Virus record (IMG/VR): IMGVR_UViG_2548876940_000011
Source: a virus
Taxonomy: Duplodnaviria > Heunggongvirae > Uroviricota > Caudoviricetes
Direction: 5' to 3' (one strand)
DNA: 39,560 nucleotides
The notes beneath the pieces are model-generated. The model ran no database searches. It worked only from the letters and a program-made list of their open reading frames with translations, and was not told the origin of the DNA. Numbering within the stretch: the first letter of the stretch is position 1; each line of letters starts with the position of its first letter. This document shows positions 1,601 through 25,598 of this stretch, piece by piece. The position numbers and the translations under genes are program-made.

Positions 1601-3691
1601 ATGTGGGTAACAGCAAAAGAATGTGTTGGTCTTCCTGATTTACCAATGATGGAACATAACATTCGCCATCGACTCACAAAAGCAGCTGCGGGAAATGCAG
1701 CCATGTTACGCAAACGTAAGGGGACAAAAGCAATCGAATTTAATATCGATTGTTTGCCTTCTGGCGCGCAACAAGTATTGCGTGAACGTTATGCCCTTCA
1801 ACTGATGACGCAAAAAGCTGATGAATCACCGGCTCCGGTGGTGACAAAGGCCAGACGCTCATCTGCCGTGGTTGATGCGGTGGAGGCATATCGCGGATCA
1901 CCACAACTGATGCTCGAACGCCTCAATGCCCTGACTGAAAACCAGCGCCAGGTGGCTGATGCACGAATCGCGATCGTCAGCGAAGTTCTGAAAGTCGCGC
2001 AACAACCTGGTTTCAGCTGTGCGAAGGCTATCCGGTTTATCGTTGACAACCTGGCACGTTCGCAACTGGACGAGCGCATTGTGGCAATGGTTGAGACGGC
2101 GAACGCCAAAAAGGGAAACAGCCGTGCGTTGAGTGAAATCACGCTGAAACGCTGGATTGCAGCCTTTAACAAGGCGCAGAACGCCGCTGAACGCCTGCTT
2201 TTGCTGGCACCTGGTAAGCGCCAGGAAATAAAAGCCGAAGATATTAACTGGCTGCCCGAATTTCTGGCGCAGTATCGCCAGTCAAACGGCCGACCAATGA
2301 CCGAGGCTTACGAGGATTTTGTCGCTGAATGGCAGCACCGGCACGCTGATGAGCCTTATATGCTCGATATCATGCCGTCTTATGACACCATTCGCCGCGC
2401 AATGAAGAAACTGCCGGAAGTGGTGAAACAAAAAGGCCGGGTGACCGGCAGTGAATACCGCCAGCTTGAGGGATTCACGCGCCGCGACTGGTCCAGAATG
2501 CCGGTGAATTATGTCTGGATTGGTGACGGTCACGGCATGAAGCTGAAATGCGCACACCCGGTTCACGGTCGGCCATTTGCACCGGAAGTGACCTTTGTTA
2601 TCGACGGTGGCACGCGCTTTGTGGTGGGCTGGAGCCTTGACCTGGCTGAAAATGTTTTCGCCGTAGCCGGTGCCATACAGCACGGCATTCGCCATCACGG
2701 CAAACCGTTTCTGTATTACTCGGATAACGGCTCCGGGGAAACCGCCGACATCCTGGATAAGGAGGTTGTGGGGATACTGCCGCGACTGGGGATTAATCAC
2801 CCGACCGGGATTGCCGGTAATCCGCAGGGACGAGGCATTATCGAACGGCTTAACCGCACATTACCGATGCGCATAGCCCGTAAATACCGCACCTATTTCG
2901 GGAAAGGTGCAGATCGCGAGACGTTACGCAAAACCAACCGCGATTTACGCTCGGCATTTACTGCCCTGCAACAGGGCAAACGGCTGAACGCCCGGCAGCA
3001 GTCAGCGATGCGTGATTTACCGTCCTGGTCTGAACTGATTGATGCCATTCGTGACGGTGTTGAGTGGTACAACAACCGGCCGCACGATGAATTACCGGTG
3101 AAGCCGAACGGCAAGCATTACAGCCCGGCGGAGTTCAGAAAAAAACGCCTGGCGGAAGAGGACACGGAAATTGAATGGCTGTCCGATGTTGAGCTGCGGG
3201 ATATGTTCCGGCCGATGGTGGAACGCCCTGTAAGACGCTGTGAAATACGCTGGCTGAATAATATTTACTACGCGCCCGAGCTGCGTGACGAGCATGGTCG
3301 TAAGGTGCTTATCAGCTATGACATTCATGATGCCGAACGAATTACCGTACGTCGCCTGGATGGCAGCGTGATTTGCGAGGCGGTATGGGACGGCAATAAA
3401 CGCGAAGCCTTCCCGATCAGCGCGGAATACCACAAACAGCAGCAGCGCCTTAAAGGCATGCGTAAACGCGCAGAGGAAAAAATCCGTGATGCCGAGGATG
3501 AGATTGTCAACGTGCTGGAGCACAAGCCACAGGAGCCGTGGCTGGAAAATATATACCGCCCTGTGGGTAATACGGTGATCGTTCAGCAACCGGTCGCTGA
3601 CGATGAACCTGATGAAGAATACGAGCGTAATTTCCAGCGGGGATTGCAGCTGCTTGAAGCGAAATTAAAAGAAAATGACCCTCTGGCCTGA
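1601..3691 (+). CDS. Mu A-type DDE transposase
   Basis: 696 aa ORF immediately after ner and before the B-like ATPase; size and position match MuA. Confidence 0.9.
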   Translation: MWVTAKECVGLPDLPMMEHNIRHRLTKAAAGNAAMLRKRKGTKAIEFNIDCLPSGAQQVLRERYALQLMTQKADESPAPVVTKARRSSAVVDAVEAYRGSPQLMLERLNALTENQRQVADARIAIVSEVLKVAQQPGFSCAKAIRFIVDNLARSQLDERIVAMVETANAKKGNSRALSEITLKRWIAAFNKAQNAAERLLLLAPGKRQEIKAEDINWLPEFLAQYRQSNGRPMTEAYEDFVAEWQHRHADEPYMLDIMPSYDTIRRAMKKLPEVVKQKGRVTGSEYRQLEGFTRRDWSRMPVNYVWIGDGHGMKLKCAHPVHGRPFAPEVTFVIDGGTRFVVGWSLDLAENVFAVAGAIQHGIRHHGKPFLYYSDNGSGETADILDKEVVGILPRLGINHPTGIAGNPQGRGIIERLNRTLPMRIARKYRTYFGKGADRETLRKTNRDLRSAFTALQQGKRLNARQQSAMRDLPSWSELIDAIRDGVEWYNNRPHDELPVKPNGKHYSPAEFRKKRLAEEDTEIEWLSDVELRDMFRPMVERPVRRCEIRWLNNIYYAPELRDEHGRKVLISYDIHDAERITVRRLDGSVICEAVWDGNKREAFPISAEYHKQQQRLKGMRKRAEEKIRDAEDEIVNVLEHKPQEPWLENIYRPVGNTVIVQQPVADDEPDEEYERNFQRGLQLLEAKLKENDPLA

Positions 3692-8277: not shown

Positions 8278-8829
8278 ATGATGATTTTACAACACATGGG
8301 GCGAAAAGGTCGTACACCCGCTCATGTCCGCGCGTGGACACCTGAAGAAGATGCGCTACTGATTGCGCTTTATTCATCCACCCCGGTTAAGGATATTGCT
8401 GCCAGAATAAAAAGAACTGTCTGGGCTGTATATAACCGGACTGGTGTATTGCGCAGTTCATACCCGGAGTTACTGAAATATAAACACCCAAGATTTACAC
8501 CTGATGAAGATAAGTTTATTCGAAAAAATGCCAGAACAATGACCTGCCAGCAAATGGGAGAATATCTCGGACGTAATAAAGATTCTGTCAGATGTCGGGC
8601 AGGAATGATTGGTGCTGGATTAACAAAGTGCGGAGAGTTACGCCCCGGCACGCGCATATCTGATGATGATGTACGTCTTATACGTGCGCTGCGTGATTCC
8701 GATTACCCACGCCGTCTGTCATTCCGGGAAATTGGCGAAAAGTTTGGAATATCTGAACATTCTGCTCACGCAGTTTATTACCGTCGCCGGACTGCCGAGG
8801 ACGCTGTATTACGGGAGTTAACGCCATGA
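8278..8829 (+). CDS. Putative DNA-binding protein with three tandem Myb/SANT-like repeats
   Basis: 183 aa; three ~50-aa repeats (WTPEEDALLIALY..., FTPDEDKFIRKNA..., ISDDDVRLIRALR...) each shaped like a helix-turn-helix unit. Confidence 0.5.
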   Translation: MMILQHMGRKGRTPAHVRAWTPEEDALLIALYSSTPVKDIAARIKRTVWAVYNRTGVLRSSYPELLKYKHPRFTPDEDKFIRKNARTMTCQQMGEYLGRNKDSVRCRAGMIGAGLTKCGELRPGTRISDDDVRLIRALRDSDYPRRLSFREIGEKFGISEHSAHAVYYRRRTAEDAVLRELTP

Positions 8830-9155
8830 TAACGACCTTATTTGTTGAATCAGATGAACCTCTTGTGTGTGCCGCCGGAATGCCGCTCTGTGGCGGAACG
8901 CTGACCGGTGTTTATTTCGGGGATTTACGCGGTTATCCCTGGCATTCACTGAATGATGCTTTCCCACCTGATATGGAGGCTGTCGTGCTGATTGTTCAGT
9001 ATGGTCACCGTCAGGAGCTGCGCATCGGCCATATGGGGTATGAAGGCTTTTTTGTTGATGAAGAAACCGGAGCCTGCCTTGAAGATGAAGACGGACAGGT
9101 GACGCACTGGTGTCATATTTCGGCTTTACCGGAATTACGGGAGGTGAATGCGTGA
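8826..9155 (+). CDS. Hypothetical early protein
   Basis: 109 aa; 4-bp overlap with the upstream ORF. Confidence 0.5.
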   Translation: MITTLFVESDEPLVCAAGMPLCGGTLTGVYFGDLRGYPWHSLNDAFPPDMEAVVLIVQYGHRQELRIGHMGYEGFFVDEETGACLEDEDGQVTHWCHISALPELREVNA

Positions 9156-9502
9156 GAAGTTATATTGATAATGAAAAGCTGGAGACAATAAGCGACTGTC
9201 TTAGCTTGCTGGCAAAAATCAAAGAAACTATTGAAGAGATTAAATTTCAGCTTGAATACGCACCATGTGGCGATGATGCATGGCGTAATGCTGCCAGAAA
9301 AGCACTGGCTGTCTTTCAGAAACAACGCCGGGCTGTTGAATACCGCCTTGCTGTATTGCGCCAGGAGGAAAAGGAAAGAAATATAAGACGTCATGAACGC
9401 GTTAATGATTTCCTTGTTCGTGAATTAAAAGAGCGGGTGCCGGAGTCGGTATTTTTTGAATGTGAGGCTATAGCCCGTAGCAAAGCACTGGAAACAGATT
9501 AA
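9152..9502 (+). CDS. Hypothetical coiled-coil protein (GTG start)
   Basis: ORF 9110..9502; in-frame GTG at 9152 follows GGGAGGTG and overlaps the upstream stop; start of AT-rich block. Confidence 0.4.
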   Translation: MRSYIDNEKLETISDCLSLLAKIKETIEEIKFQLEYAPCGDDAWRNAARKALAVFQKQRRAVEYRLAVLRQEEKERNIRRHERVNDFLVRELKERVPESVFFECEAIARSKALETD

Positions 9503-9517
9503 GCAGGCAGGTGAATA

Positions 9518-9826
9518 ATGAGTATTGAATTAAGATCGTCTTATGAATATCGCAAAATCCTTATCGCCGGAGGCATGAAACCGGAAGATGCAGAGCAATT
9601 CGTTTCTTTTATGGATAAAGAATGTGACAAGCGGGATATGCCAGAAATTATTATGGATGACATGATTCTGGATTCAGCCGTGGCGTTAAGTCCGTTATGG
9701 ATTGTGCATACTCTTGCGGAAATAGCTAAAAGAAGTGACAAGCAGGCGGCTGTCGCCGCCCTGCGATTACTGGCTGAATTAAGTTGTTCAGTCAATCCCA
9801 ATACGTTCTTTGACGAACCTGGTTAA
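9518..9826 (+). CDS. Hypothetical protein
   Basis: 102 aa; RBS-like GCAGG upstream; AT-rich; 3-prime end overlaps the convergent minus-strand gene. Confidence 0.5.
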   Translation: MSIELRSSYEYRKILIAGGMKPEDAEQFVSFMDKECDKRDMPEIIMDDMILDSAVALSPLWIVHTLAEIAKRSDKQAAVAALRLLAELSCSVNPNTFFDEPG

Positions 9827-10198
9827 CATTGATTTGGTAACTTCTTTGATTAGATCAAATGGTGCGTCTGTAAACTCCTTTTTGATTCTTTCAAGGATTG
9901 GTTTTTTTCTCAGGGCGTTAGCTAAATCATGCCCCTGCTGGGTAAGCATAATGGGCGTGTTTCTGAAACCAACGCCCAGAGAATGGAAAAAGAAACCAAT
10001 ATATTTGGGTGTTTCTGACTGCATATCACCATTAACAATTGAGCCATTATCAGCGAGAAGCATAAGATGAAAAACTTTTTTATCCTTTTCCTCTCCTTCT
10101 GCCTCAGCCATGCCCAGATCCTGTAGTGTAAGGAAAGGTGTTTCAGCATCCTGAAAAGTTGTGAGAATACTTAATACTTCATCGTAATCTATTTTCAT
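9788..10198 (-). CDS. Hypothetical protein on the opposite strand inside the early operon (moron-like)
   Basis: 136 aa; markedly AT-rich by eye relative to flanking genes; convergent 39-bp overlap with 9518..9826. Confidence 0.55.
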   Translation of the reverse strand: MKIDYDEVLSILTTFQDAETPFLTLQDLGMAEAEGEEKDKKVFHLMLLADNGSIVNGDMQSETPKYIGFFFHSLGVGFRNTPIMLTQQGHDLANALRKKPILERIKKEFTDAPFDLIKEVTKSMLTRFVKERIGID

Positions 10199-10262
10199 AT
10201 CGATACCTTTAGTTTTATCCGGGCGGCGTTGCCATGCCGCCTGTTGTTACGGAGACACGATA

Positions 10263-10775
10263 ATGAATCGCGCTTCCCTGATTACCTTAATACATGTCGC
10301 AAAACGCGATCTACAGCTTGACCATGAGACCTACACATCCGTACTACTGGCAGCCACCGGCAAACCCAGTTGCCGGGATATGTCACCGGATGAGTTATCC
10401 CGCGTGCTGGATGTTTTCAAAAAACGCGGTTTTAAAGTGCGTCAGAAGCCGGTTAACCGGGCCTTAAAACCGGGGACGGTGACCGCCAAAATTCGCGCCA
10501 TCTGGAAAGTGATGCACCGGCAGGGCTTTATCGCTGATGGCGGGGAAAACGCCATTAACCGCTGGGTGAAATCGCAGACGGCCGCGCAGAACGGCGGTGA
10601 AGGTGTGGCTAACTGGCAGTGGCTGGAGCAACACCCCGCACTGGCCTCTGATGTGCTGGAGCGTCTCAAACGCTGGCACCGCCGCAAAATGCTGGATGTG
10701 CTGGGGATGTCAGCGCGTACAGTGATAAGTTATGAGCGCGTTTGCAGGCTGTATGAAAAATCATTCCCCCGTTAA
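10263..10775 (+). CDS. Mu gp16/GemA-like early regulatory protein
   Basis: 170 aa directly upstream of Mor, as in Mu; assignment by position and general resemblance. Confidence 0.65.
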   Translation: MNRASLITLIHVAKRDLQLDHETYTSVLLAATGKPSCRDMSPDELSRVLDVFKKRGFKVRQKPVNRALKPGTVTAKIRAIWKVMHRQGFIADGGENAINRWVKSQTAAQNGGEGVANWQWLEQHPALASDVLERLKRWHRRKMLDVLGMSARTVISYERVCRLYEKSFPR

Positions 10776-10845
10776 CTCCAAATCCCGCCACAGCGCGGGA
10801 TTTTTATTTTAAACTTGCCCTGTGTAATGATGACCGGAGGCGGGT

Positions 10846-11268
10846 ATGGCTGAAACACAGATGAGCATGTTTGGTGACAGCGAACAGCTGCACGCGCTGA
10901 TTGACCGTCTGGATGATATTCCTGATGATGAGCTGAAAAAGAACTGGCCCGGCACGCTGCGGGACCTGGTTGATGTGATCAGTGCTGAACTGCACCGTCA
11001 GGGGATTGAACCTGCTCAGGCGGGAATGCTTGCCCGTAAAGTTGCGGCCGCACAGGCCGGGTACATGGGCGGGCGTGGTTATTATCTCCCGGTCGGTGAA
11101 TCCCTTTTCACCGAACTGCGCAATAATGAGATTTTTTCCCGCTGGAGCCAGGGCGAAAAAATTGAAACCCTGCGCCGCCACTACCAGATGTCAGAGACGC
11201 AGATTTACTCCGTTATCCGTAACCAGCGCCGCCTGCATCAGGAACGCACGCAGCCCCGGCTTTTCTGA
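10846..11268 (+). CDS. mor: Mor/C-family transcriptional activator of middle/late genes
   Basis: 140 aa; acidic N-terminus (MFGDSEQLHALIDRLDDIPDDEL) and C-terminal HTH (LRRHYQMSETQIYSVIRNQRR) typical of Mor/C; placed just before the lysis genes. Confidence 0.8.
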   Translation: MAETQMSMFGDSEQLHALIDRLDDIPDDELKKNWPGTLRDLVDVISAELHRQGIEPAQAGMLARKVAAAQAGYMGGRGYYLPVGESLFTELRNNEIFSRWSQGEKIETLRRHYQMSETQIYSVIRNQRRLHQERTQPRLF

Positions 11269-11339
11269 TATTCCGCAAATCCTGCCCACTTTTTCCCACG
11301 GTTACGCTGACTCAGAGAACACCATGAGACAGCGTAACA
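11269..11339 (+). promoter_or_regulatory. Probable activator-dependent promoter for the lysis/late operon
   Basis: 71-bp gap between Mor and the endolysin; no promoter elements confidently read. Confidence 0.3.
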
Positions 11340-11840
11340 ATGCCAAAACTCCCCGCACCCCTGCGTAAAAAGCTGATTGCCCTTGTTCTGGCCGGAGCCG
11401 GGACGTTCACCATTGCCACGCACTACACCGGCTACTGGGAAGGGAAAGAAAACACCACGTACATTGATCCCACCGGCACCCCCACCATCTGTTACGGCCA
11501 TACCGGCCCGGATGTGAAACCGGGGATGACAAAAACTGATGAAGAGTGTCTGGAGCTGCTGGAAAAGGACATGAAATGGGCCTTTGCGGCTATCGATCGT
11601 CATGTTCAGGTGCCGCTTACCCGTGGTCAGACGGTGGCGCTGGCCTCCTGGATTTTCTGGGCCGGTGAAACGAACTTTCGCAACTCCACGCTCCTGCGCC
11701 TTATCAATGCCGGGCAGATGCCCGCGTCCTGTAAGCAGTATATCCGCTGGATTTATTCAAAGGGGGTGAAACTCCCCGGTCTTGAGGCCCGCCGTTCGGC
11801 GGATGAATGGTTATGTCGTTACGACTTGCCGAAAGTCTGA
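11340..11840 (+). CDS. SAR endolysin, T4-lysozyme-like (GH24)
   Basis: 166 aa; Gly/Ala-rich signal-anchor LIALVLAGAGTFTIATHY; catalytic E-x8-D-x5-T spacing in WEGKENTTYIDPTGTPT. Confidence 0.85.
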   Translation: MPKLPAPLRKKLIALVLAGAGTFTIATHYTGYWEGKENTTYIDPTGTPTICYGHTGPDVKPGMTKTDEECLELLEKDMKWAFAAIDRHVQVPLTRGQTVALASWIFWAGETNFRNSTLLRLINAGQMPASCKQYIRWIYSKGVKLPGLEARRSADEWLCRYDLPKV

Positions 11841-14161: not shown

Positions 14162-15825
14162 TGAACAAAGCCAAAGAAACGTCTCCTTCACTGATACAAA
14201 TGACGCCTCCCCGCAAAATTGATCTGTCCGGTGAAAAAGCCCTGCTGGGCGTGGATGTGCCGGACAGACTTGATTTGCCCGGTGATATGCCGGTGTTTCT
14301 GGATTATCAGGCCCGCTGGTTTGAGGATGAAAGTCAGGTCTGCATTGCGGAAAAATCCCGCCGCACCGGTCTTACCTGGGCGGAAGCCGGGCGTAACGTC
14401 ATTACTGCTGCAAAACCGAAGCGTCGTGGTGGCCGCAATGTGTTTTATGTGGGATCAAAGCAGGAGATGGCGCTGGAATATATTTCTGCCTGCGCCCTGT
14501 TCTCCCGCGCCTTTAACCAGCTGGCGGATGCTGATGTGTATGAGCAGACCTTCTGGGATCGGGATAAAAAAGAAGAAATTCTGACCTACATGATCCGCTT
14601 TCCGAACAGTGGATTCAAAATTCAGGCACTGTCTTCCCGTCCGTCAAACCTGCGCGGCCTTCAGGGGGATGTGGTGATTGATGAAGCCGCGTTCCACGAG
14701 TCACTGGATGAGCTTCTCAAGGCGGCAATGGCGCTCACTATGTGGGGCGCGCGCGTGCGTATTATCTCCACGCATAACGGCGTCGATAATCTGTTTAATC
14801 AGTACATTCAGGAAGCCCGCGAGGGGCGCAAGGATTACAGCGTCCACCGCATAACCCTGGATGATGCCATTGCGGACGGGCTGTACCGTCGTATCTGTTA
14901 CGTCACCGATCAGGAATGGTCACCGGAAAGCGAGCAGAAATGGCGTGATGATCTCTACAAAAACGCCCCGACCCGTGAGGATGCCGACGAGGAATACGGC
15001 TGTATCCCGAAAAAATCCGGCGGTGCCTATATTCCTCACGCGCTTATTGAAATGGCGATGATCCGCGACATCCCGATTCTGACGTTTGAAGCCCCGGACA
15101 ACTTCATCAGCCGTGCCGCATGGCTGCGTGAATCGGAAGTTTTAACCTGGTGTGAAGAACATTTAAAACCGCTTTTAGAGAAATTAAATCCCCGTTCCCG
15201 CTTCAGCTTCGGGGAAGACTTTGCCCGCACCGGTGACCTGTCCTGCTTTGTGCTGCTGGAAATCACCGAATCCCTGGCAAAGCGCGAGGTGTTTCGCGTG
15301 GAGCTGCGCAACCTGCCGTATGCCCAGCAGGAACAGGTGATGATGTACATCCTGACCCGCGTTCCGGCGCTGGTCGGTGCGGCGTTCGACGCCACCGGTA
15401 ACGGCGGCTATCTGGCAGAGGCCGCACTGCTGGCCTTTGGCCCGGACATCATCGACTGCGTGATGTTGTCGCCGAAGTGGTACGGCGAGTGGATGCCAAA
15501 ACTGAAAGCCGAGTTTGAAGATCAGAATATCCTCGTCGCCCGCCATCAGACCACGCTTGATGATTTGCGCCATGTGAAGGTAGTGAATGGTATCCCGCAA
15601 ATCGACAAGGGGCGCACGAAGGACCAGAACGCAACGGCTGCGAACGCCCGCCGCCATGGTGATTTTGCCGTGGCGCTCTGTATGGCAAACCGGGCGTCAT
15701 ACATGGAGGGCTTCATCCTGGATGAATCAGCCTGTCAGGCGCTACCGGAGCGGTCGCGGGCAATGGAGGGCGGTTATCGTGATGACGATGAGGCATATCA
15801 TGAATTTGATCGGGGGGGCTGGTAG
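14161..15825 (+). CDS. Terminase large subunit (Mu gp28-like)
   Basis: 554 aa; start overlaps upstream stop; directly precedes the portal; call by size and synteny. Confidence 0.8.
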   Translation: MNKAKETSPSLIQMTPPRKIDLSGEKALLGVDVPDRLDLPGDMPVFLDYQARWFEDESQVCIAEKSRRTGLTWAEAGRNVITAAKPKRRGGRNVFYVGSKQEMALEYISACALFSRAFNQLADADVYEQTFWDRDKKEEILTYMIRFPNSGFKIQALSSRPSNLRGLQGDVVIDEAAFHESLDELLKAAMALTMWGARVRIISTHNGVDNLFNQYIQEAREGRKDYSVHRITLDDAIADGLYRRICYVTDQEWSPESEQKWRDDLYKNAPTREDADEEYGCIPKKSGGAYIPHALIEMAMIRDIPILTFEAPDNFISRAAWLRESEVLTWCEEHLKPLLEKLNPRSRFSFGEDFARTGDLSCFVLLEITESLAKREVFRVELRNLPYAQQEQVMMYILTRVPALVGAAFDATGNGGYLAEAALLAFGPDIIDCVMLSPKWYGEWMPKLKAEFEDQNILVARHQTTLDDLRHVKVVNGIPQIDKGRTKDQNATAANARRHGDFAVALCMANRASYMEGFILDESACQALPERSRAMEGGYRDDDEAYHEFDRGGW

Positions 15826-17414
15826 TGGGACGCATCATTGATACTGACGGAAAACCTTTCTCCTTTGACCCGGAGATGCAGAGTGCCGCGCTGGATATTC
15901 CGCAGATTGCCAGCCGTTATATTGAACATCCGGCTTCGGGTATCACCCCGAACCGGGCGGCGCAGTGCCTTCGCGGGGCTGAACGTGGCGATCTGATTGC
16001 CCAGTCCGATCTGGCCGCTGATATTGAAGAAAAGGACACCCACCTTTTTGCGGAGCTGGGCAAGCGACGTCTTGCCATTCAGGGGGTGCCATGGAGTATT
16101 GAGCCGCCACCGAACGCCAGCGCGAATGAGAAAAAGGACGCGGAAATGCTCGACGAATATCTGCATTCCGCAGACTGGTTTGATGCCATGCTGTTTGACG
16201 CCACGGATGCCATCCTGAAGGGCTATTCCTGCATGGAAATTGAGCACGGGATGCTCGGTAAAATGCACATCATCCGCGCCATCCGCTGGCGTGACAGCGG
16301 GCATTTCTGCCTTAACCCGGATGATTTGAGCGAACTGCGGCTGCGTGACGGCAGCCATTCCGGGGTGGCGTTTCAGCCCTTTGGCTGGATAGTGCATCAG
16401 TCGCGTTCACGCACCGGTTACGGTGGTGCAACCGGGCTTGTCCGGACGCTTATCTGGCCGTTCATTTTCAAAAACTATTCCGTGCGCGATCTGGCGGAAT
16501 TTCTGGAGGTGTACGGCCTGCCGATGAAGGTCGGGAAATACCCGTCCGGGGCAACACCGGAGCAGAAAAGTGCCCTGATGCGGGCGGTGATGGATATCGG
16601 GCGACGTACAGGCGGGATCATCCCGGCCGGGATGTCGCTGGAGTTTCAGGCGGCAGCGAACGGTCAGGCCGATCCGTTTGAAACCATGATTTCGTGGGGG
16701 GAGCGTTCCATCTCCAAAGCAATACTCGGCGGCACGCTGACCACGGAAGCCGGAGACAAAGGCGCGCGCTCACTGGGTGAGGTACATAACGAGGTGCGCC
16801 GGGAAATCAGGGATTCTGATTTACGACAGCTGGCTGCAACCCTGAACCGCGATCTGGTGTATCCGCTGTACGCCCTGAACACCACGCACACTATTGATAT
16901 CCGCCGTCTGCCACGTATCTGCTTCCAGACAAAAGAACCAGGTGATATCACCAAAATCACCAGTGCGGTGATGCAGCTCAGTACGGGGATGGATATTTCT
17001 GATCCCTGGATACGTGAGCAGACCGGTATTCCGCAGCCCACGCCCGGTGAAGCCATATTCCGTGTCCGTCAGAGTGGCAATGAACCGGCTCAGACCGACA
17101 GGGAAACACCACCGGAAAAACAGGAAAAAACAGAGCAGACGGCGCTGTCAGCCAGACTGCCGGAAGCGAAAAGCACGCCGCGTGATGAACTGGATGATAT
17201 GGGGGACGCGGTGCCTGCCCGCCGCTTACAGGAGGCCATCGACCCGGTACTGGAGCCGGTCATTGATGCCATCAGAACGCGGGGGCTGGCGGATGCGCTG
17301 GCAGACCTGCCTGCCCTTTATCGTGAAATGGATGATTCCCGCCTGATGACGCTGCTCAGTGATGCCATGTTTGCTGCGGAAATGAAGGGGATGCTGGATG
17401 ACACAGGGGATTGA
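15825..17414 (+). CDS. Portal protein (Mu gp29/H-like)
   Basis: 529 aa; GTG start overlapping the terminase stop; acidic C-terminus; position between terminase and F. Confidence 0.8.
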   Translation: MGRIIDTDGKPFSFDPEMQSAALDIPQIASRYIEHPASGITPNRAAQCLRGAERGDLIAQSDLAADIEEKDTHLFAELGKRRLAIQGVPWSIEPPPNASANEKKDAEMLDEYLHSADWFDAMLFDATDAILKGYSCMEIEHGMLGKMHIIRAIRWRDSGHFCLNPDDLSELRLRDGSHSGVAFQPFGWIVHQSRSRTGYGGATGLVRTLIWPFIFKNYSVRDLAEFLEVYGLPMKVGKYPSGATPEQKSALMRAVMDIGRRTGGIIPAGMSLEFQAAANGQADPFETMISWGERSISKAILGGTLTTEAGDKGARSLGEVHNEVRREIRDSDLRQLAATLNRDLVYPLYALNTTHTIDIRRLPRICFQTKEPGDITKITSAVMQLSTGMDISDPWIREQTGIPQPTPGEAIFRVRQSGNEPAQTDRETPPEKQEKTEQTALSARLPEAKSTPRDELDDMGDAVPARRLQEAIDPVLEPVIDAIRTRGLADALADLPALYREMDDSRLMTLLSDAMFAAEMKGMLDDTGD

Positions 17415-18729
17415 TTTAGGTTATGCCGCCACGCTTCCCTCAAAAGAGGCGGTAGCATACTTCCGTGTCAAAGGGGCGCATATCAGCTGGAACTGGTTCG
17501 AAACAGCCGCGGATGTTCATGCCCGCTCATTCACGGCAGCAAAAGCGGCACGCCTGGATGTGGTGACCACGTTACAGGCCGAAGTGCAGCGGGCCATTGA
17601 TGAGGGAATTTCACAGAAAGCATTTATCCGCACGCTGACGCCACGCCTGCAAAAGCTGGGATGGTGGGGAAAGCAGATTGTGGTGGACAGCGACGGTAAC
17701 GCGGAAGAAGTGCAACTGGGCAGTCCCCGTCGTCTGGCGCTGATTTACAACGTGAACACCCGGGTGGCTTACAATGCCGGGCGTTACACGCAGATGATGA
17801 ACAACACGGACACGCATCCGTTCTGGCAGTATGTGGCGGTCATGGACAGCCGTACCCGCCCGTCGCATTCCGCCCTTAACGGTCTGGTATTCCGCTATGA
17901 CGATCCGTTCTGGAAAACACACTACCCACCTAATGGCTGGAACTGCCGCTGCCGTGTGCGGCCATTGTCTCAGGCTCGTCTGGATGCAATGGGGTTATCC
18001 GTTTCATCCGGTGAGGATCATCTCTCCACCCGCAATGTTGAGGCTGGCGTGGATAAACAGACCGGAGAAGTCAGAGAAATGCCGGTGACCACATATTCAG
18101 ATGGCACCAGAACCATGACACCGGATGTGGGCTGGTCATATAACCCCGGCTCGGCAGCGTTCGGCACAGACCAGGCGCTGATCCGCAAACTGATCGAGGT
18201 GAAAAGCCCGGCGTTACGGGAAATGGTGGTTCAGGAGATGAACAACAGCCCGGAGCGGCAGCTGGCGTTCCGCATCTGGGCAAAAAACATCATGCAGACC
18301 CAGCGAGGTGGTAACGATATCCGCACGCTGGGCTTTATGACTGAAAGCATTGCGCAGGCAGTGGAAAGCCGGACGGGAACGCCACCGGCCCGCCTGCTGG
18401 CGATGAGCGGTAAAAATGTGCTCCATGCAGACAGTGTGAAACATCAGAATGACGGCATCGCCCTGATGCCAGAGGACTTCGGGCGCTTACCGGCAATGCT
18501 GGCAAAGCCAAAAGCGGTGCTGTGGGACAAACGGCACAAAAATCTGATGTATATCGTGGAAAATAAGGATGGCAGTGTGCAGATTGCCGTTAATGCACCG
18601 TACAGTCTGAAACGTCAGCCCGACAAACTGGATGTGATTGTGAATGCTTACCGAGTTATCAATATGGATAAGCTGAAATCGGATATCCGGGGCGGAATGC
18701 TTGAGGTGCTGGAAGGACAAATTGATTAA
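17398..18729 (+). CDS. Head morphogenesis protein (Mu F-like)
   Basis: 443 aa; conserved block DSRTRPSHSALNGLVFRYDDPFWKTHYPPNGWNCRCR typical of Mu F / SPP1 gp7 family. Confidence 0.85.
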   Translation: MTQGIDLGYAATLPSKEAVAYFRVKGAHISWNWFETAADVHARSFTAAKAARLDVVTTLQAEVQRAIDEGISQKAFIRTLTPRLQKLGWWGKQIVVDSDGNAEEVQLGSPRRLALIYNVNTRVAYNAGRYTQMMNNTDTHPFWQYVAVMDSRTRPSHSALNGLVFRYDDPFWKTHYPPNGWNCRCRVRPLSQARLDAMGLSVSSGEDHLSTRNVEAGVDKQTGEVREMPVTTYSDGTRTMTPDVGWSYNPGSAAFGTDQALIRKLIEVKSPALREMVVQEMNNSPERQLAFRIWAKNIMQTQRGGNDIRTLGFMTESIAQAVESRTGTPPARLLAMSGKNVLHADSVKHQNDGIALMPEDFGRLPAMLAKPKAVLWDKRHKNLMYIVENKDGSVQIAVNAPYSLKRQPDKLDVIVNAYRVINMDKLKSDIRGGMLEVLEGQID

Positions 18730-18850
18730 CGGTCAGTGGCGGGGGTCGAACCCGCATACATGATCCACCCGGAGGCAGGCACCGACTTTACCAGTTAAGC
18801 GTACACTGACCGCCTGTTTATTTTATATTCATCCTTTATGCGGAGGCAAT

Positions 18851-19324
18851 ATGTCATCCATTGATGCCGCTGTCGTTGTTGACGTTACGCGTCTCCAGCG
18901 GGTGTTTGCCCGGCTTCAGTTTGTGGGCGGCGGAAAAGACCTGGCCCGCAGTGTGGCGGAGAGTCTTCTGTCATCGTCAGAAATGGCGTTTGAACAGGAA
19001 AAAGAGCCGGACGGCGAACGCTGGCATGACTGGTCAGATCCTTACCGCAAGTGGCGTACCCGTAAGGGATACACGCCCGGCAAAATCCTGACACTGAACG
19101 GCGATCTGGCCCGCCGCCTGACCACGGATTATGGCGATACCTGGGCGCTGATTGGATCAAATGAACCTTATGCGGCCATTCATCAGTGGGGTGGCCTGCC
19201 TGGTATGCCACCGGGACCGGCGGCCATTGGCGCACGTCCGTATATGGGCTTTGCTCAGGTGGCAGAACAGGAGATCATGGACGAAATCAGAAAACGCTTT
19301 AAAAAGGCCACAGAAACGCCGTAA
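18851..19324 (+). CDS. Virion morphogenesis protein (Mu G-like)
   Basis: 157 aa between F and the protease/scaffold gene; call by position and size. Confidence 0.7.
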   Translation: MSSIDAAVVVDVTRLQRVFARLQFVGGGKDLARSVAESLLSSSEMAFEQEKEPDGERWHDWSDPYRKWRTRKGYTPGKILTLNGDLARRLTTDYGDTWALIGSNEPYAAIHQWGGLPGMPPGPAAIGARPYMGFAQVAEQEIMDEIRKRFKKATETP

Positions 19325-19501
19325 TGGTTTAAGGTATACAAACGCATTGCCTTACCCTCTTCAGGCGCGTGTCGTGATTTTCTAACCTGTATTTAACGGG
19401 CTTTAAAATCTGCGTGAAGCGCCTTTCTCATTTTTCCCCTGTCAGCACTTTCTGAAGTCCCGCAAAACCGGCCCCGAAAAACACCGGCTTATGCTGCCGG
19501 A
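19325..19501 (+). promoter_or_regulatory. G-I intergenic region: probable late promoter for the head operon; candidate central gyrase site
   Basis: 177-bp non-coding gap close to the midpoint of the element; in Mu the equivalent gap carries the I promoter and the strong gyrase site. Confidence 0.3.
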
Positions 19502-20626
19502 ATGAAGACGAAAAACACGCCCAAACTTGCTTATGCCATTCTGAATGCCATCAGCCTGTCCGCAGACGGGGACGGTGACTGGTGTCAGATCATGCCAGCC
19601 GGTCGGGTAAAGGCCCGTGACGGTCGCCCGGAAAAACCGGCGGAAGGCTGGCTGATTAACCATGCGGCCGTTGAGCGTATGGTATCCCGGGTTGTGGCGC
19701 TCAATCAGCCGGTAAAAATTGACTACAACCACCAGACCCTGATTAAGGGGCATCCGGCACCGGCTGCCGGTTTTGTCATGGCCTCACCGGAAAACTTCCG
19801 CTTCAGTGAAGAGCGGGGTTTTGAAGTGCGTCCGGACTGGAACCCTCCGGCCATTGAACACCTGCGCAATAACGAATTTCCCTGGTTTTCCCCGGTGATT
19901 GGTTATGACGAAATCACCGGTGAACCTGTTGAGCTTCGGATGCTGGCTATTACCGGTGACCCCGGTCTGACTGGCATGAATCCTGTCGCCGCACTGTCGG
20001 CGGATGACCTTTATAACGCCTTAAACCCTCCTTTAAAGGACACCTCCATGAATGAGCAATTACGCCAGTTGCTGACGGCGCTCGGTCTGACCGTGGCCGA
20101 CGGTGACGAATTTACACCGGAACTGGGCACGGCGGCGCTGTCTGCCCTTACCGGGATCAAAACCCGTGCGGATGCGCACGACACCCTGAAAACGCAGGTT
20201 GCCAGCCTGTCGGCAGAGCTGGAAACCGCAAAAGGCACACCAACTGGCGGCACTATTGATCTGACGAAATACGTGCCCGTTGAGACGTATAACGCCCTGC
20301 GTACCGAATATGTCGCGTTGTCGGCACAACACGGCAGCACCACGCTGGAGCAGTTGCTGGATAAGGCCGAGTCCGAAGGACGCATTTTCAAAAGCGAACG
20401 CGGATACATGGAAGGACTCGGACAACAGATTGGTGTTGCGGCACTTTCTGCACAGCTTGACGCCCGCCAGCCGGTTGCGGCTCTGACCACTCTTCAGACC
20501 GACACCGTAACCGTGCCGGATAAAAAGACCGCCACCGCTGCGCTGTCGGCTGAAGATATCGCCGCCGCCCATCTGCTGGGTAAAACCGAAGCCGAGTTCC
20601 TGAAAATGAAAGAGGAAATGCAATAA
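19502..20626 (+). CDS. Head protease / scaffold (Mu I-like)
   Basis: 374 aa immediately upstream of the major capsid gene; Ala/Thr-rich C-terminal half. Confidence 0.8.
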   Translation: MKTKNTPKLAYAILNAISLSADGDGDWCQIMPAGRVKARDGRPEKPAEGWLINHAAVERMVSRVVALNQPVKIDYNHQTLIKGHPAPAAGFVMASPENFRFSEERGFEVRPDWNPPAIEHLRNNEFPWFSPVIGYDEITGEPVELRMLAITGDPGLTGMNPVAALSADDLYNALNPPLKDTSMNEQLRQLLTALGLTVADGDEFTPELGTAALSALTGIKTRADAHDTLKTQVASLSAELETAKGTPTGGTIDLTKYVPVETYNALRTEYVALSAQHGSTTLEQLLDKAESEGRIFKSERGYMEGLGQQIGVAALSAQLDARQPVAALTTLQTDTVTVPDKKTATAALSAEDIAAAHLLGKTEAEFLKMKEEMQ

Positions 20627-21573
20627 TGCCTACCCCGATCACACCGGCGATGATCACCGCCCTGATGACGGGCTACCGTTCTGATTTTCAGGCCGGGATG
20701 TCCATGGCTCCGTCTCAGTACCAGAAAATTGCGATGACCGTACCGTCCACGTCGAAATCCAACACCTACGGCTGGCTGGGGCAGTTCCCGCAGTTCCGTG
20801 AGTGGATCGGCTCCCGCGTCATCGAGAAGATGAAAGCCTATGGCTACGCCATCGTGAACAAAACCTTTGAAGGCACCGTTGCCATTAGCCGCGATGACTT
20901 TGAAGACGACAATCTTGGCATCTACTCCCCGTTGTTCCAGGAGATGGGGCGCGCTGCGGCGGCACAACCGGATGAACTGGTCTTTGCTGCACTGCGTGAT
21001 GGTCTGAATGCGGCCTGCTATGACGGCCAGAACTTCTTTGATACCGAACACCCTGTTTACCCCAAAGTGGATGGCTCCGGTGATGCACAGATGGTCAGCA
21101 ATATGTTTGTGGCAAAAACCGGCTCTGTCGGTGCACAGGCGGATTACAGCGGCCCGGCCTGGTATCTGCTTGACTGCTCCCGCGCGGTAAAACCGCTGAT
21201 TTATCAGGATCGCCGCAAGGCCGAACTGGTTGCCCAGACAAAAGTCGATGAAGGCCGTGCGTTTACTGATAACGAGTTTGTGTTCGGTGCTTCCGCCCGT
21301 CGCAATGTGGGCTACGGCTTCTGGCAGATGGCCTACATGATGCAGTCACCGCTGACGCTGGATGCGCTGTGGCACGGCTGGTCAGCCATGCGTGACTTTA
21401 AGGCTGACGGTGGCCGCAAACTCGGCATCAAACCCACCCATATTGTTGTCCCCACCTCGCTGGAAAAACAGGCGGTGCAGCTGCTGGAGCGCGAGCTGTT
21501 CGCGGACGGTAACACCACCGTCTCTAACGAGATGAAGGGCAAGCTGGAGCTGGTTGTCGCGGATTATCTGTAA
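20626..21573 (+). CDS. Major capsid protein (Mu T-like)
   Basis: 315 aa; start overlaps protease stop; position and size. Confidence 0.8.
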   Translation: MPTPITPAMITALMTGYRSDFQAGMSMAPSQYQKIAMTVPSTSKSNTYGWLGQFPQFREWIGSRVIEKMKAYGYAIVNKTFEGTVAISRDDFEDDNLGIYSPLFQEMGRAAAAQPDELVFAALRDGLNAACYDGQNFFDTEHPVYPKVDGSGDAQMVSNMFVAKTGSVGAQADYSGPAWYLLDCSRAVKPLIYQDRRKAELVAQTKVDEGRAFTDNEFVFGASARRNVGYGFWQMAYMMQSPLTLDALWHGWSAMRDFKADGGRKLGIKPTHIVVPTSLEKQAVQLLERELFADGNTTVSNEMKGKLELVVADYL

Positions 21574-21616
21574 ACGGTGAGCCGGGCTTACGGCCCGGCC
21601 CCTGCGGAGGGCAAAT

Positions 21617-21970
21617 ATGAATGAACATCACACTGTGGCAGCAACAGATGATTCAGGCCTTCAGGTCAGTGGTGACAGTCCTGTCACGGTACTGGCAGAA
21701 GTGCGTTGCAGTCGTGCGCAGTTTCGTCGTGCGGGGTTCCTGTTCATGCGGGGACGCCAGCAGGTTGACGTCACCCCGGAGCAGCTTGCCCGACTGGAAG
21801 CGGAGCCATGCCTCACTGTACGAATACTACAGACGCCTGGTGATGATGCGGGAGCCGTGGCGGGTGTGGTTCATGCAGAGACCGGTGCAGATTTAGCCGA
21901 AGCCGGACAGGATGCTCCCCGGAAAAAGACCGGCAATAACGCCAGACAGGCGAAAAAGGCTCGCGCATGA
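21617..21970 (+). CDS. Hypothetical head protein (Mu gp35 position)
   Basis: 117 aa; RBS GGAGGG upstream; stop overlaps next start (ATGA); basic C-terminus. Confidence 0.5.
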   Translation: MNEHHTVAATDDSGLQVSGDSPVTVLAEVRCSRAQFRRAGFLFMRGRQQVDVTPEQLARLEAEPCLTVRILQTPGDDAGAVAGVVHAETGADLAEAGQDAPRKKTGNNARQAKKARA

Positions 21971-22386
21971 ATTACGCCACCGAAACCGATATGCGGGCAC
22001 GTTACCGCGAGGATTTGCTCAGGCCATTACTGGCCGTGCCCCGTTCGGATGAGCCGGACACACGCAAGCTGAACCGGGCACTGACGGACGCGTCTGCCCT
22101 TATCGACAGTTACCTGTCTGCCCGTTACACGCTGCCGCTGGCGGTGGTTCCGGCGGTCCTTGTTCAGCATTGCTGCACGATTGCCTTTTATTACCTGTGC
22201 GATCAGCGGGCATCCGATCAGGCGCGTGACCGTTACCGTGAGGCGCTGGCCTGGCTGAAAGATGTCATGAACGGTAACGTGCCGGTCGGCGTGGATACAG
22301 ACGGTGCGGCCCCTGAATCCGGGGATTTACCGCAGGTGCAGCCTGATGCGGCGGTGTTCGGGCGCAACCAGAAGGGCTTTATATGA
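21967..22386 (+). CDS. Mu J-like head-tail joining protein
   Basis: 139 aa; translationally coupled; synteny between capsid and sheath. Confidence 0.65.
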   Translation: MNYATETDMRARYREDLLRPLLAVPRSDEPDTRKLNRALTDASALIDSYLSARYTLPLAVVPAVLVQHCCTIAFYYLCDQRASDQARDRYREALAWLKDVMNGNVPVGVDTDGAAPESGDLPQVQPDAAVFGRNQKGFI

Positions 22387-22946
22387 TTACGGAAACCGAG
22401 CAAGCGTACATCGCCCGTATCCGTGAGTATTTCGGGAATGAACTGGTGTCTGTTGACACACATCCCGGCGACTGGAGCGACAGCGTACTGCGTACCATGC
22501 TGATTAACGCCCCGGCTATCTATGTTGCCTGGCTGGGTGCCGGTGAAGGGCGTACCCGTGGGCGTCTGGTCAGTCACTGGGTGTTCTACGTCATCGGCGA
22601 CATGCTCAATGGCCGTGAGGTCAGCCGTCCCGGGCTTTATCAGATTGTGGCCCGCCTGATTACCTTGCTGGACGGCTTCAGAGCAGAAAAAACCTCACCG
22701 CTTTACTTTGAAAAGGCGGTCAACGGTTACACCGAAACGCAGGCAGGCAGCGGTGCCGTGATGTACGCCCTGTATTTCTCATGCGAGGAAATGATCGACC
22801 CGCTGACGGATATCAGCTCGCTGGATGATTTCCTGCGCCATTACGAAACCTTTACCGAACCGGAAGGCACGCCGGAGTTTAAGGCACACATCCGTCTGCC
22901 TGGTGCAACTGCCGCCGGTGAAAACGCCGGACCGTCAGAGGAATAA
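22383..22946 (+). CDS. Mu K-like head-tail joining / tail terminator protein
   Basis: 187 aa; overlapping start; synteny. Confidence 0.65.
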   Translation: MITETEQAYIARIREYFGNELVSVDTHPGDWSDSVLRTMLINAPAIYVAWLGAGEGRTRGRLVSHWVFYVIGDMLNGREVSRPGLYQIVARLITLLDGFRAEKTSPLYFEKAVNGYTETQAGSGAVMYALYFSCEEMIDPLTDISSLDDFLRHYETFTEPEGTPEFKAHIRLPGATAAGENAGPSEE

Positions 22947-22949
22947 CAG

Positions 22950-23228
22950 ATGACAACCATTTTTATTAAACCTGCGCCGGGATGCCTGATTCGCGATCCC
23001 GACACGATGACTCCGCTCTCACAGGACGGTGAAGAGAAACCCTTCACTCCGTTCTGGTGCCGCCGTCTTAATGATGGTGACGTCATTGTGGTGGATAAAA
23101 CGGAGGAGCCTGCCCCGGCTGCCACAACAGGTAATACCGGCGCGGCGGCAAAACCAGCGGGAGCGGCAGCAGAAAAAACTGCGGCGGTGGCTGAAAAAAC
23201 CGCAGCATCAGATAAGGGGACGTCCTGA
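22950..23228 (+). CDS. Hypothetical small protein upstream of the sheath gene
   Basis: 92 aa; Ala/Lys-rich C-terminus. Confidence 0.55.
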   Translation: MTTIFIKPAPGCLIRDPDTMTPLSQDGEEKPFTPFWCRRLNDGDVIVVDKTEEPAPAATTGNTGAAAKPAGAAAEKTAAVAEKTAASDKGTS

Positions 23229-24730
23229 TGATTAACTTTGATTATATCGGCGATAACAATCGCATTCCGCTGGTACAGATTGAAATCAATAATTCAATGG
23301 CCGTGACCGGCACTCCACCACAGCGTCAGGCGGTACTGTTGTTTGGTCAGGCTGCAATGAAAGACACCACCATTCAGGGGCGCGGTCAGCTTGATGTACC
23401 AGTACGTATTACCCGAGCTTCACAAGCAAGAGAACTCTGGGGGCGAGGTTCCATGATTGCACTGATGGTAGAGGAATTTATCGCCATTAACCCTGACACA
23501 GAGTTATATGCCATTGCACAGGGGGCTGGAACAGGTCAGTCCAGGGCATGCGTGATGAATATCATTGGAACAGCATTGGCAGACGGGGTGTTAAGTGTTT
23601 ACATCGGCGGTCGCCGTTACCTCCTGCCCGTCAGTAAGGGGAAAAAAGGTAAAGAGCTTGTGGAAGAGCTGGCTAAGGTCATTAACGCTGACACTGATGC
23701 GCCATTCACTGCTATCGCAGCTGAAGTCAGTGGTGATAATGCTGAAGGACTTAAAGGCAGCATGGGGGTTAACGCCCGCTTTATCGGTGAATGCTCAGCT
23801 CATGATTTACGGGTGAACTATTATGACGGTGAAACTACACCGGCCGGTCTTACGCTGGAGCTCGTCGCGCCAACACAGAAGGCAACAAACCCCGATATCA
23901 CCCGTAGCGTCTCAGGGATGGGGAATCGTCAGTACAACTACATCGTCATGCCCTATAAGGATGCGGCAAATCTCAAAATTCTGGCGGATGAACTGCTGAA
24001 ACGCTGGGGACCGGTAAAAATGTCGGACGGTATGGTCTGGATGGCGCATACCGGCACCTTCGGTACGGCAACCAGTTTTGGTGAATCCCGTAATGACTTC
24101 CTGTTTACCTGCACTTCTATTCCTAAAGCACCAGAGCCGGATTATGTCTGGGCTGCCTCCATTTGTGCGGTCTGTGCGCCCTCCCTGTCAACGGATCCGG
24201 CCCGACCATTACAGACACTGGCGCTGCCTGCCCGTATGGCACCTGAAGCACCGGATCGTCTGACGCGGGAAGAGCGAAACAGCCTGCTTTATACCGGCAT
24301 GTCCACGGTGACCGTTGCGGCCGCTGATGTGGTGCAGATTGAACGTCAGGTGACGATGTACCGTCAGAATGCATACGGCGAAAGCGATCCCAGCTATCTG
24401 GATGTAGAAACCATCTACACCCTGTCATATCTGCGTTATTCCCTGCGCACCTTTATCACGCAGCGTTTCCCGCGCCACAAACTGGCCGATAACGGTACTC
24501 CCGTCCGGCCCGGTCAGAATATCGTGACGCCGGAGATTATGACGCTCCAGCTGATTGCACTGGGGGAAGAATGGGTGGAACTCGGGCTGGTCGAAAATCT
24601 GGACACCTTTAAAAAGAATCTGCTCGTGGAGCGCAACACAAAAGACCGTAACCGTCTGGATGTGATGTGTACACCGGATCTGGTTAACCAGTTCCGCTTC
24701 ATGGCCGCGCAGATCCGTTTCATTTTGTGA
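23228..24730 (+). CDS. Contractile tail sheath protein (Mu L-like)
   Basis: 500 aa followed directly by a ~120-aa tube gene. Confidence 0.85.
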   Translation: MINFDYIGDNNRIPLVQIEINNSMAVTGTPPQRQAVLLFGQAAMKDTTIQGRGQLDVPVRITRASQARELWGRGSMIALMVEEFIAINPDTELYAIAQGAGTGQSRACVMNIIGTALADGVLSVYIGGRRYLLPVSKGKKGKELVEELAKVINADTDAPFTAIAAEVSGDNAEGLKGSMGVNARFIGECSAHDLRVNYYDGETTPAGLTLELVAPTQKATNPDITRSVSGMGNRQYNYIVMPYKDAANLKILADELLKRWGPVKMSDGMVWMAHTGTFGTATSFGESRNDFLFTCTSIPKAPEPDYVWAASICAVCAPSLSTDPARPLQTLALPARMAPEAPDRLTREERNSLLYTGMSTVTVAAADVVQIERQVTMYRQNAYGESDPSYLDVETIYTLSYLRYSLRTFITQRFPRHKLADNGTPVRPGQNIVTPEIMTLQLIALGEEWVELGLVENLDTFKKNLLVERNTKDRNRLDVMCTPDLVNQFRFMAAQIRFIL

Positions 24731-24738
24731 GGTAAGGC

Positions 24739-25104
24739 ATGAGCGGAAAACAGCATCAGGGCACGGCCACCATCCGTGTGAACGGACAGGAGTACGCCAC
24801 CCTTGAGGGAGCCACGTTCTCCCCGTCCGGCTTTGAGCGTGAAGTGGTGAAAGGCGCGAAAGTCTATGGCTATCGTGAGAAACCCCGTGAGGCGACGCTG
24901 GACTGTAAATTTCCGGCTGGCGGAGAAGGTTCACCGGCTGCCGATGAAATCAACACCTGGACTGCGGTCACGATTGAGTTCGTGGCCGATACCGGTGAAG
25001 TCCATATGATGACGAAGGCTTGGAGCAGTGAACCGGCCTCGCTTGACGGTGGCGGTGATATCTCCGCGAAGTTCGCCAGCGCCACCAGTACCCGTGTCCA
25101 GTAA
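24739..25104 (+). CDS. Tail tube protein (Mu M-like)
   Basis: 121 aa immediately after the sheath gene. Confidence 0.8.
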   Translation: MSGKQHQGTATIRVNGQEYATLEGATFSPSGFEREVVKGAKVYGYREKPREATLDCKFPAGGEGSPAADEINTWTAVTIEFVADTGEVHMMTKAWSSEPASLDGGGDISAKFASATSTRVQ

Positions 25105-25118
25105 TCAGGAAAAATGCA

Positions 25119-25598
25119 ATGACCACACGTAAGAAAAAAACGGCGGTTTCTGACGAGGCCGTGATGGAGGCTATCCGGGATGCACTTGAAGACGGCGATC
25201 CCCGCACCGCCGGGCTGGCTGAACAGCTGGCGAACGGCTATGTGGATCTGCTCGACGGTCTGCCGTTCGGGGAATCCCGTGAATACCGCGTCACCTTCCG
25301 CGAACTGACGGCGAAAGACAGCATTGACGCGGAAACCGAGGCCGAGCGTCTTATGGAAACCCGAAATGGCGGCCCGGTTCTGATAGCCTCGCCGGCACTG
25401 CGCGGCATTGCACTGCTGCGCCGTCAGATTGCCGCTGTTGGCCAGATTGAGGGGCCATTGTCTCCGCGTCAGATCGGACAGCTCAGCGAGCGCGATCTCT
25501 CCCGTCTGATGGCGGCGGTAAGCCTGCTTGATTCCGCGATGGCAGGAAAGCTGGTCGCTGAACGGGGGCGACCAGATGCAGTGCCGGGATCAGATTGA
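25119..25598 (+). CDS. Tail assembly chaperone candidate
   Basis: 159 aa acidic protein between tube and tape-measure genes. Confidence 0.6.
   Translation: MTTRKKKTAVSDEAVMEAIRDALEDGDPRTAGLAEQLANGYVDLLDGLPFGESREYRVTFRELTAKDSIDAETEAERLMETRNGGPVLIASPALRGIALLRRQIAAVGQIEGPLSPRQIGQLSERDLSRLMAAVSLLDSAMAGKLVAERGRPDAVPGSD

Follow-up and report, generated by a model that had tools for sequence, protein, structure and literature searches.

Introduction

The closest described counterpart of the locus considered here lies in phage Mu itself, where gp15 (Mup15, NP_050619; 88 amino acids, aa) is encoded on the minus strand of NC_000929 immediately upstream of gemA and overlaps gp14 by 62 nucleotides (nt). 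Low-level early transcription has been reported in Mu lysogens (PMC3820752), and the same article cites Paolozzi and Ghelardini (1992) on how gem modulates host functions in lysogens. In other phages, STMMW_20121 of ST64B is an antisense, independently transcribed prophage accessory locus (PMC7067206), and olg1/ORF10 of the B3-like phage Fc02 are exclusion genes that overlap on opposite strands (PMC9936078). Here we analyse a window of 39,560 nt (IMG/VR record IMGVR_UViG_2548876940_000011; all positions refer to this whole stretch), which is a Mu-like prophage in an Escherichia coli chromosome, and within it a block at 9152-10262 that holds three open reading frames (ORFs): the forward orfA and orfB and the backward orfC, which lies directly before gemA. 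An initial annotation of the sequence had taken the block for an AT-rich island of horizontally acquired cargo, such as superinfection-exclusion, abortive-infection or toxin-like genes. The reading that we favour, with moderate confidence, is that orfC is an optional accessory gene of the moron type, expressed from the prophage, which encodes a probable DNA-binding protein and occupies a backward slot upstream of gemA.

Results

orfC is a conserved gene with a predicted winged-helix fold

Judged by its relatives and its pattern of substitution, orfC is a real gene under purifying selection. An exhaustive profile search recovered 256 family representatives, about 135 aa long, that align from end to end, and the possibility raised by the initial annotation, that the minus-strand ORF might be absent from all relatives, does not apply. 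The ratio of nonsynonymous to synonymous substitution (dN/dS) is 0.08-0.2 in informative pairs, and an AlphaFold2 model built from a 76-sequence alignment reaches a predicted local distance difference test (pLDDT) value of 97.1. It is on account of this family, this ratio and this model confidence that we regard the gene as real. The model consists of an N-terminal helix, a winged helix-turn-helix with a β wing and three C-terminal helices, so that a winged-helix fold with flanking helices takes up all 136 residues. From this architecture the product is a probable DNA-binding protein, and it would most likely bind as a dimer. We infer DNA binding, its target, the timing of expression and any interplay with orfB alike for orfC.

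Of the checks proposed in the initial annotation, remote-homology search and structure prediction place orfC among the winged helices of the DUF2513/YjcQ group, and remote-homology search gives orfB no relative in Pfam or the PDB. Against PF10711 (DUF2513) orfC scores 23.6 bits (E 6.6e-05, model positions 1-96 of 100), which is under the Pfam gathering cut-off of 29.6 bits. The same model is matched by 54 of the 76 aligned relatives (best E 9e-15), one relative also matches YjcQ, and the RefSeq name of WP_000687317.1 is 'DUF2513 domain-containing protein'. A BFVD fold search returned only generic winged helices and YjcQ. Pfam MarR, MarR_2 and PadR gave no orfC match at E values up to 0.1, and sequence searches of the PDB that started from orfC, from its profile or from that of orfB yielded noise only. 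NCBIfam gave no match for orfB or orfC and PADLOC none for orfA or orfC, with only noise for orfB (E about 0.07). Neither the library scans nor the fold of the model revealed a defence, toxin, enzyme or membrane signature in orfC. The suggestion of a toxin or abortive-infection gene thus meets no usable PADLOC or NCBIfam match and a plain winged-helix fold, and we do not uphold it. Literature searches on DUF2513 returned no paper on the family, which is also not mentioned in the defence literature searched.

One exchanged cassette within an AT-rich block

The three ORFs lie where the initial annotation placed them and on the same strands, and RefSeq annotates them identically in the chromosome of E. 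coli strain JKHS016, to which the block is 99.8% identical. The convergent overlap between orfB and orfC, estimated at about 39 base pairs (bp), measures 39 nt, and the GC hairpin GGCGGC-GTTGCCAT-GCCGCC is present at 10222-10241. The reported AT-richness holds up in a windowed calculation: guanine plus cytosine (G+C) content is 42.0% over 9152-10262 against 53.5% for the window, and among all windows of 1111 bp the block ranks in the lowest 1.4%. It is not the sole AT trough. Others that equal or exceed it in depth lie at 201-1400, about 34000-34400 and about 37400-37800, with a minimum of 33.6% G+C near 37631; the first is the repressor and early-promoter region, and the other two belong to the flanking island beyond the prophage.

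The three ORFs are not a single acquired island, because homology to O157-type relatives breaks only at 9762. In BLASTN comparisons the stretch 8805-9762 is common to O157-type Mu-like prophages at 93.5% identity. It includes orfA, which is 94% identical to its O157-type homologue and lies outside the exchanged cassette, together with residues 1-81 of orfB, whose last 21 codons belong to the cassette. Homology to L004 and L007 stops at 9762 and restarts at 10290, while homology to L005 and E. coli SCU-106 restarts at 10244. These breakpoints mark orfA, and orfB up to codon 81, as ordinary early genes. What stands of the acquired-island proposal is that orfC is optional, exchangeable and AT-rich; its three-ORF unit does not, and the picture of a single acquired three-gene island is corrected to that of one exchanged cassette (Table 1).

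The early accessory region 8800-9762 is also mosaic, and its BLASTN breakpoints coincide with gene boundaries. Similarity to SCU-106 and M3 ends at 9143, and only 8800-8835 and 9504-9762 match STEC299, so that cassette exchange in some relatives extends to the gene at 8826-9155 and to orfA. Rfam families were sought over 8800-11400, and none fell within or beside the block.

Table 1. Positions of the genes, putative signals and exchanged segment discussed in the text.
Feature	Position	Strand	Details
orfA	9152..9502	+	116 aa, early-region gene; phrog_6158, E 1e-54; 42.7% G+C
orfB	9518..9826	+	102 aa, helical protein; phrog_1988, E 1e-38; 42.7% G+C
Hairpin 1 and T-rich tail TGCTTGTCACTTCTTTT	9727..9763	-	Stem 9745-9750/9755-9760, loop GACA; from folding
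Exchanged cassette	9763..10243		orfB tail, orfC and hairpin 2; right edge 10289 against O157-type relatives
orfB/orfC convergent overlap	9788..9826	both	39 nt; both C-termini encoded here
orfC	9788..10198	-	136 aa; 38.9% G+C, AT-richest of the three ORFs
orfC Shine-Dalgarno	10206..10210	-	AAAGG, 7 nt before ATG; read from sequence
Hairpin 2, then TGTTGTTA	10220..10249	+	Core stem 10222-10227/10236-10241; before gemA Shine-Dalgarno
gemA (gp16 family)	10263..10775	+	PF06252, E 6e-28; divergent neighbour of orfC
Weak candidate orfC promoter	10284..10313	-	TAGATC-18 nt-TAAGGT; gemA codons 8-17; position weight matrix (PWM) score 4.9, within background
Canonical intrinsic terminator	10780-10803	+	AAATCCCGC-cacagc-GCGGGATTT, then TTATTTTAAA; between gemA stop 10775 and mor start 10846

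The backward-gene slot before gemA

Homologues of orfC were surveyed at 41 IMG/VR loci and on 3 metagenome contigs. At 45-54% identity they lie backward and directly before gemA in many Mu-like phages, separated from it by 30-71 nt. A gene found at this identity in the same place and orientation, and with the same 39-nt overlap, in many such phages is not the recently gained cargo that had been supposed. In two lineages orfC lies between gemA and mor (L043 and L050), and at the majority of 13 loci for which the individual genes were mapped it is a lone gene set against the local operon. Every homologue examined has a G+C content below that of its flanks, and for this reason AT-richness is better seen as a trait of the orfC family than as the mark of a recent import. 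A scan of genome contigs found at least one orfC locus, in Edwardsiella anguillarum among the matches listed. In non-Mu contexts orfC follows directly downstream, on the same strand, of a CI/LexA-like repressor gene (L033) or of an Arc-like gene (L032, L046), and this co-orientation with repressor genes is indirect evidence that orfC may be expressed during lysogeny.

The occupancy of the slot varies. The full block occurs in 6 of 232 matching E. coli genomes; O157 and STEC299 types have two forward ORFs in its place, SCU-106 has a different backward gene of 79 aa, and M3 has a single forward ORF, its backward gene lying instead between gemA and mor. A natural deletion of 9847-10204 has removed orfC from L057 and left orfB and the hairpin, and in at least one relative orfC is frameshifted (L018, with L059 from the same contig). 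By comparison across these genomes the slot is old and present in Mu itself. Kinship between Mu gp15 and the 79-aa backward gene of SCU-106 was entertained and dropped, as BLASTP found no significant similarity, and literature searches on Mup15 and the gem operon returned nothing on orfC or Mu gp15. A second backward-gene slot, empty in the window, appears to lie after gemA, because E. coli M3 and L078 carry a 113-aa backward gene directly downstream of gemA.

Signals for the transcription of orfC

The spacer at 10199-10262, in which the initial annotation had sought the orfC promoter, contains only hairpin 2, the orfC Shine-Dalgarno and the gemA Shine-Dalgarno GGAG (10251-10254). A consensus scan found nothing promoter-like in it, and the same spacer is only 30 nt long in some relatives. 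Because these 64 bp are devoid of a promoter-like site, the orfC promoter probably lies within gemA codons. The site listed in Table 1 is a speculative candidate for it: the position of its weak TAGATC-18-TAAnnT motif recurs in L020, L026, L008, SCU-106 and Mu, yet in conserved gemA coding sequence. Where the spacer is long, strong sigma-70-like sites are found 41-72 nt upstream of orfC (L048, L043). These sites, together with a conserved hairpin and T-tail after the stop codon, are why orfC looks like a transcription unit of its own.

The hairpin in question, hairpin 1, is embedded in the orfB codons for DKQAAVAAL about 27 nt past the orfC stop, its stem-loop (9745-9760) falling within the part for AAVAAL, and it recurs in relatives with TTTATC or TTTTTATC tails. 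Over 20 distinct sequences 95% of its cells are paired, and covariation is seen at the pair in which two alanine wobble bases meet (GC in 9, AU in 5, GU in 2 and UG in 1). These features are suggestive of an intrinsic terminator for the orfC transcript.

Hairpin 2 extends over 10220-10243 with a predicted energy of about -17.6 kcal/mol on the + strand, where the hairpin alone forms in the centroid structure. It is kept in phage Mu, SCU-106, L008, L020 and L026, all of which have unrelated backward genes, and in four of six lineages (L008, L020, L026 and SCU-106) it is followed by a canonical T-run on the + strand only, for example TCTTTTTTGG. Pairing again reaches 95% of cells; one pair is compensatory, and there are G.U pairs that are workable on the + strand only. 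The copy in the window has a good stem and an interrupted tail, TGTTGTTA, and was not called by the terminator scan. We read hairpin 2 as a putative leaky terminator or attenuator of early transcription into gemA-mor. It persists where the backward gene has been deleted, both in L057 and in L087, a Mu-type phage from which gp15 is cleanly deleted. Hairpin 2 therefore belongs with gemA rather than orfC, and its assignment to the orfC cassette was rejected on the same grounds.

The lineages with a 30-nt spacer (L023-L025, L035-L042 and L092-L094) have a small inverted repeat, TCTCAT-tccttaat-ATGAGA, in place of hairpin 2. The gemA Shine-Dalgarno falls within one arm of this repeat and the complement of the orfC Shine-Dalgarno within its loop, which hints at coupled translational control of the divergent orfC and gemA. 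Beyond gemA, an A-run upstream of the terminator at 10780-10803 makes that element look bidirectional. In the window mor lies behind two + strand hairpins; no spacer separates gemA from mor in Mu, where the two genes overlap.

orfB as the convergent partner

In 15 of the 18 lineages into which orfC loci cluster at 90% identity, a hidden Markov model of orfB relatives identifies a member of the orfB family that meets orfC tail-to-tail. The overlap is 39 nt in six lineages and 30, 18, 15 or 0 to -3 nt in the others. In L044 and L047-L049 the pair is flanked by a gpV-like spike gene on one side and a Baseplate_J gene on the other, and a phmmer search of the local ORF set with the orfB of the window alone is sufficient to detect these baseplate-locus partners (E 1e-5 to 1e-3). 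Such conservation suggests that the two genes may act together. Among 58 orfB loci on about 57 contigs, some 40% contain orfC; the remainder continue with O157-type ORFs, with gp14 and gp15, or directly with gemA. In L032-L034 and L051 orfC stands beside repressor genes without orfB. The Pfam and PDB searches showed no recognisable domain in orfB, a toxin domain included. Nor does the pair have the make-up of a toxin-antitoxin system: orfB and orfC are convergent rather than co-transcribed, the former is devoid of a toxin domain, and it is often found alone. In L084-L091, which are close Mu relatives, a 107-aa orfB-family gene lies between gp13 and gp14 (locus 2962-3285); Mu is without it.

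The surrounding prophage

The window encodes a Ner-like helix-turn-helix protein, Mu transposase, an AAA ATPase, Gam and further early genes, followed by gemA, Mor (a PF08765 match), lysis and structural genes. According to the RefSeq annotation of the near-identical JKHS016 locus, the structural region 15825-25336 is rearranged. The portal gene (DUF935) is without its C-terminus and the protease gene without its N-terminus, a segment of about 17295-23290 is inverted, and the tape-measure gene is split, with one part on each strand. The prophage is probably defective. On either side of the element, at 258-371 and 32326-32694, lie fragments of a JAB (RadC-like) gene, with antirestriction, DUF932 and DUF987 genes close by. 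Because these two fragments flank it, the Mu-like prophage appears to have transposed into a gene of a CP4-type island.

Discussion

The locus has two of the marks expected of a moron: orfC is present or absent at a fixed site among relatives, and its base composition differs from that of its surroundings (38.9% against 53.5% G+C). In the model that we favour, the early promoter would be repressed in the lysogen and orfC transcribed leftward from a weak promoter, probably within the first gemA codons. The transcript would be translated via the AAAGG ribosome-binding site and would stop at the T-tailed hairpin within the 3' part of orfB. Upon induction, early transcription would run through orfB and then across the whole of orfC in antisense, where it would be expected to silence the gene through polymerase collision and RNA pairing, before passing the leaky, terminator-like hairpin 2 to reach gemA and mor.

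Several observations weigh against this reading. The DUF2513 score of orfC falls below the Pfam threshold, and a sigma-70 PWM applied to the 260 nt upstream of orfC, in the window and at other gemA-adjacent loci, found nothing above background. Four of the six pairs of hairpin 1 are fixed by alanine codons, which would make the structure partly a by-product of the Ala-Ala-Val-Ala-Ala stretch, and the hairpin is also found in relatives without orfC. For these two reasons its role as a terminator is not proven, and the second weakens the proposal that it is specific to orfC. Present-day function in this strain is uncertain too, because the prophage is rearranged and probably defective.

The best placed of the alternatives, itself unlikely, holds that orfB and orfC form a mobile convergent toggle. 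OrfC made by the prophage would repress or exclude, restraining phage DNA, be it that of incoming relatives or the phage's own genes, and OrfB made in the lytic cycle would neutralise OrfC and so provide self-immunity; the overlap and the terminator buried in orfB would enforce either/or expression. The near-constant presence of a convergent orfB-family gene beside orfC (15 of 18 lineages), set against an orfB that is often alone, fits such an arrangement, as do the conserved overlap length and the joint movement of the pair into the baseplate operon and the gemA-mor spacer. The pairing may however reflect history, or the siting of the orfC terminator within orfB, and the loci where orfC stands beside repressor genes without orfB (L032-L034, L051), as well as an orfB devoid of any domain recognised in Pfam and PDB searches, speak against a toggle.

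Next in rank, and doubtful, is the view of the initial annotation, by which orfC would serve defence through superinfection exclusion, abortive infection or a toxin-like product. Antisense orientation, AT-richness and variable presence are typical of prophage defence morons, and precedents exist in the opposite-strand overlapping exclusion genes of Fc02 (PMC9936078) and in the antisense, independently transcribed prophage loci discussed as accessory genes (PMC7067206); a role in superinfection exclusion is possible. Set against this are the empty PADLOC and NCBIfam searches with orfC, a winged helix that accounts for all 136 residues and leaves no enzymatic, membrane or toxin domain, and the absence of the family from the defence literature searched.

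Less probable again is a core regulatory role, in which the OrfC protein, antisense transcription or both would, with hairpin 2, gate gemA and mor at the passage from early to middle transcription. Such a role would suit the location of orfC, which directly adjoins gemA at most Mu-like loci and separates gemA from mor in L043 and L050; it would also suit the terminator-like hairpin just before the gemA Shine-Dalgarno and the second strong terminator before mor. However, close relatives that keep gemA and mor manage with orfC deleted, frameshifted, replaced or absent, which makes such a role unlikely; hairpin 2 outlasts the loss of the backward gene and so belongs to gemA, and orfC also occurs in baseplate and repressor-module contexts. 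A chance antisense ORF in an AT-rich spacer, to which its small size and the negative promoter scans might point, is extremely improbable and was ruled out by purifying selection, the 256 family representatives, the very confident fold and the good Shine-Dalgarno.

These results have implications beyond this prophage. Mu-like phages, Mu included, have a fixed slot for backward accessory genes before gemA, beside a conserved terminator-like hairpin. The DUF2513 family gains a predicted MarR/PadR-like fold and, in the orfB family (phrog_1988), a constant partner; its members are likely to be expressed in lysogeny. If the partnership with orfB is functional, the pair would offer a compact and readily tested model of a dormancy factor made by the prophage and disarmed on induction; if it extends to the toggle described above, it would be a new kind of module for prophage immunity or exclusion that brings its own self-immunity, and DUF2513 would thereby acquire a function. 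If the partnership is not functional, orfC is one more accessory gene without an assigned role.

Among known systems, Mu gp15 matches orfC in its slot, its orientation, its convergent overlap and the GC hairpin before the gemA Shine-Dalgarno. The two nevertheless share no sequence similarity, they differ in length (88 against 136 aa), and the partner of gp15 is gp14, which is not of the orfB family. By profile, orfC belongs with the small prophage winged-helix proteins of DUF2513 (PF10711) and YjcQ (PF09639), albeit as a divergent member whose extra C-terminal helix, residues 114-133, lies beyond the 100-position Pfam model. With MarR and PadR regulators orfC shares the N-terminal helix, the winged helix-turn-helix and C-terminal helices that may serve as a dimer interface, but identity is 13-20%, template modelling scores (TM-scores) reach only 0.4-0.45 over the full length, and there is no membership of these Pfam families. 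Like classical morons, orfC is optional, deviant in base composition and directed against the lytic operon, with an opposite-strand overlap and perhaps a terminator of its own. Unlike them it is ancient within Mu-like phages and has a constant convergent partner, and its expression from the prophage is here proposed from sequence. It is an ordinary kind of phage accessory gene, and the unusual trait is its constant tail-to-tail partner.

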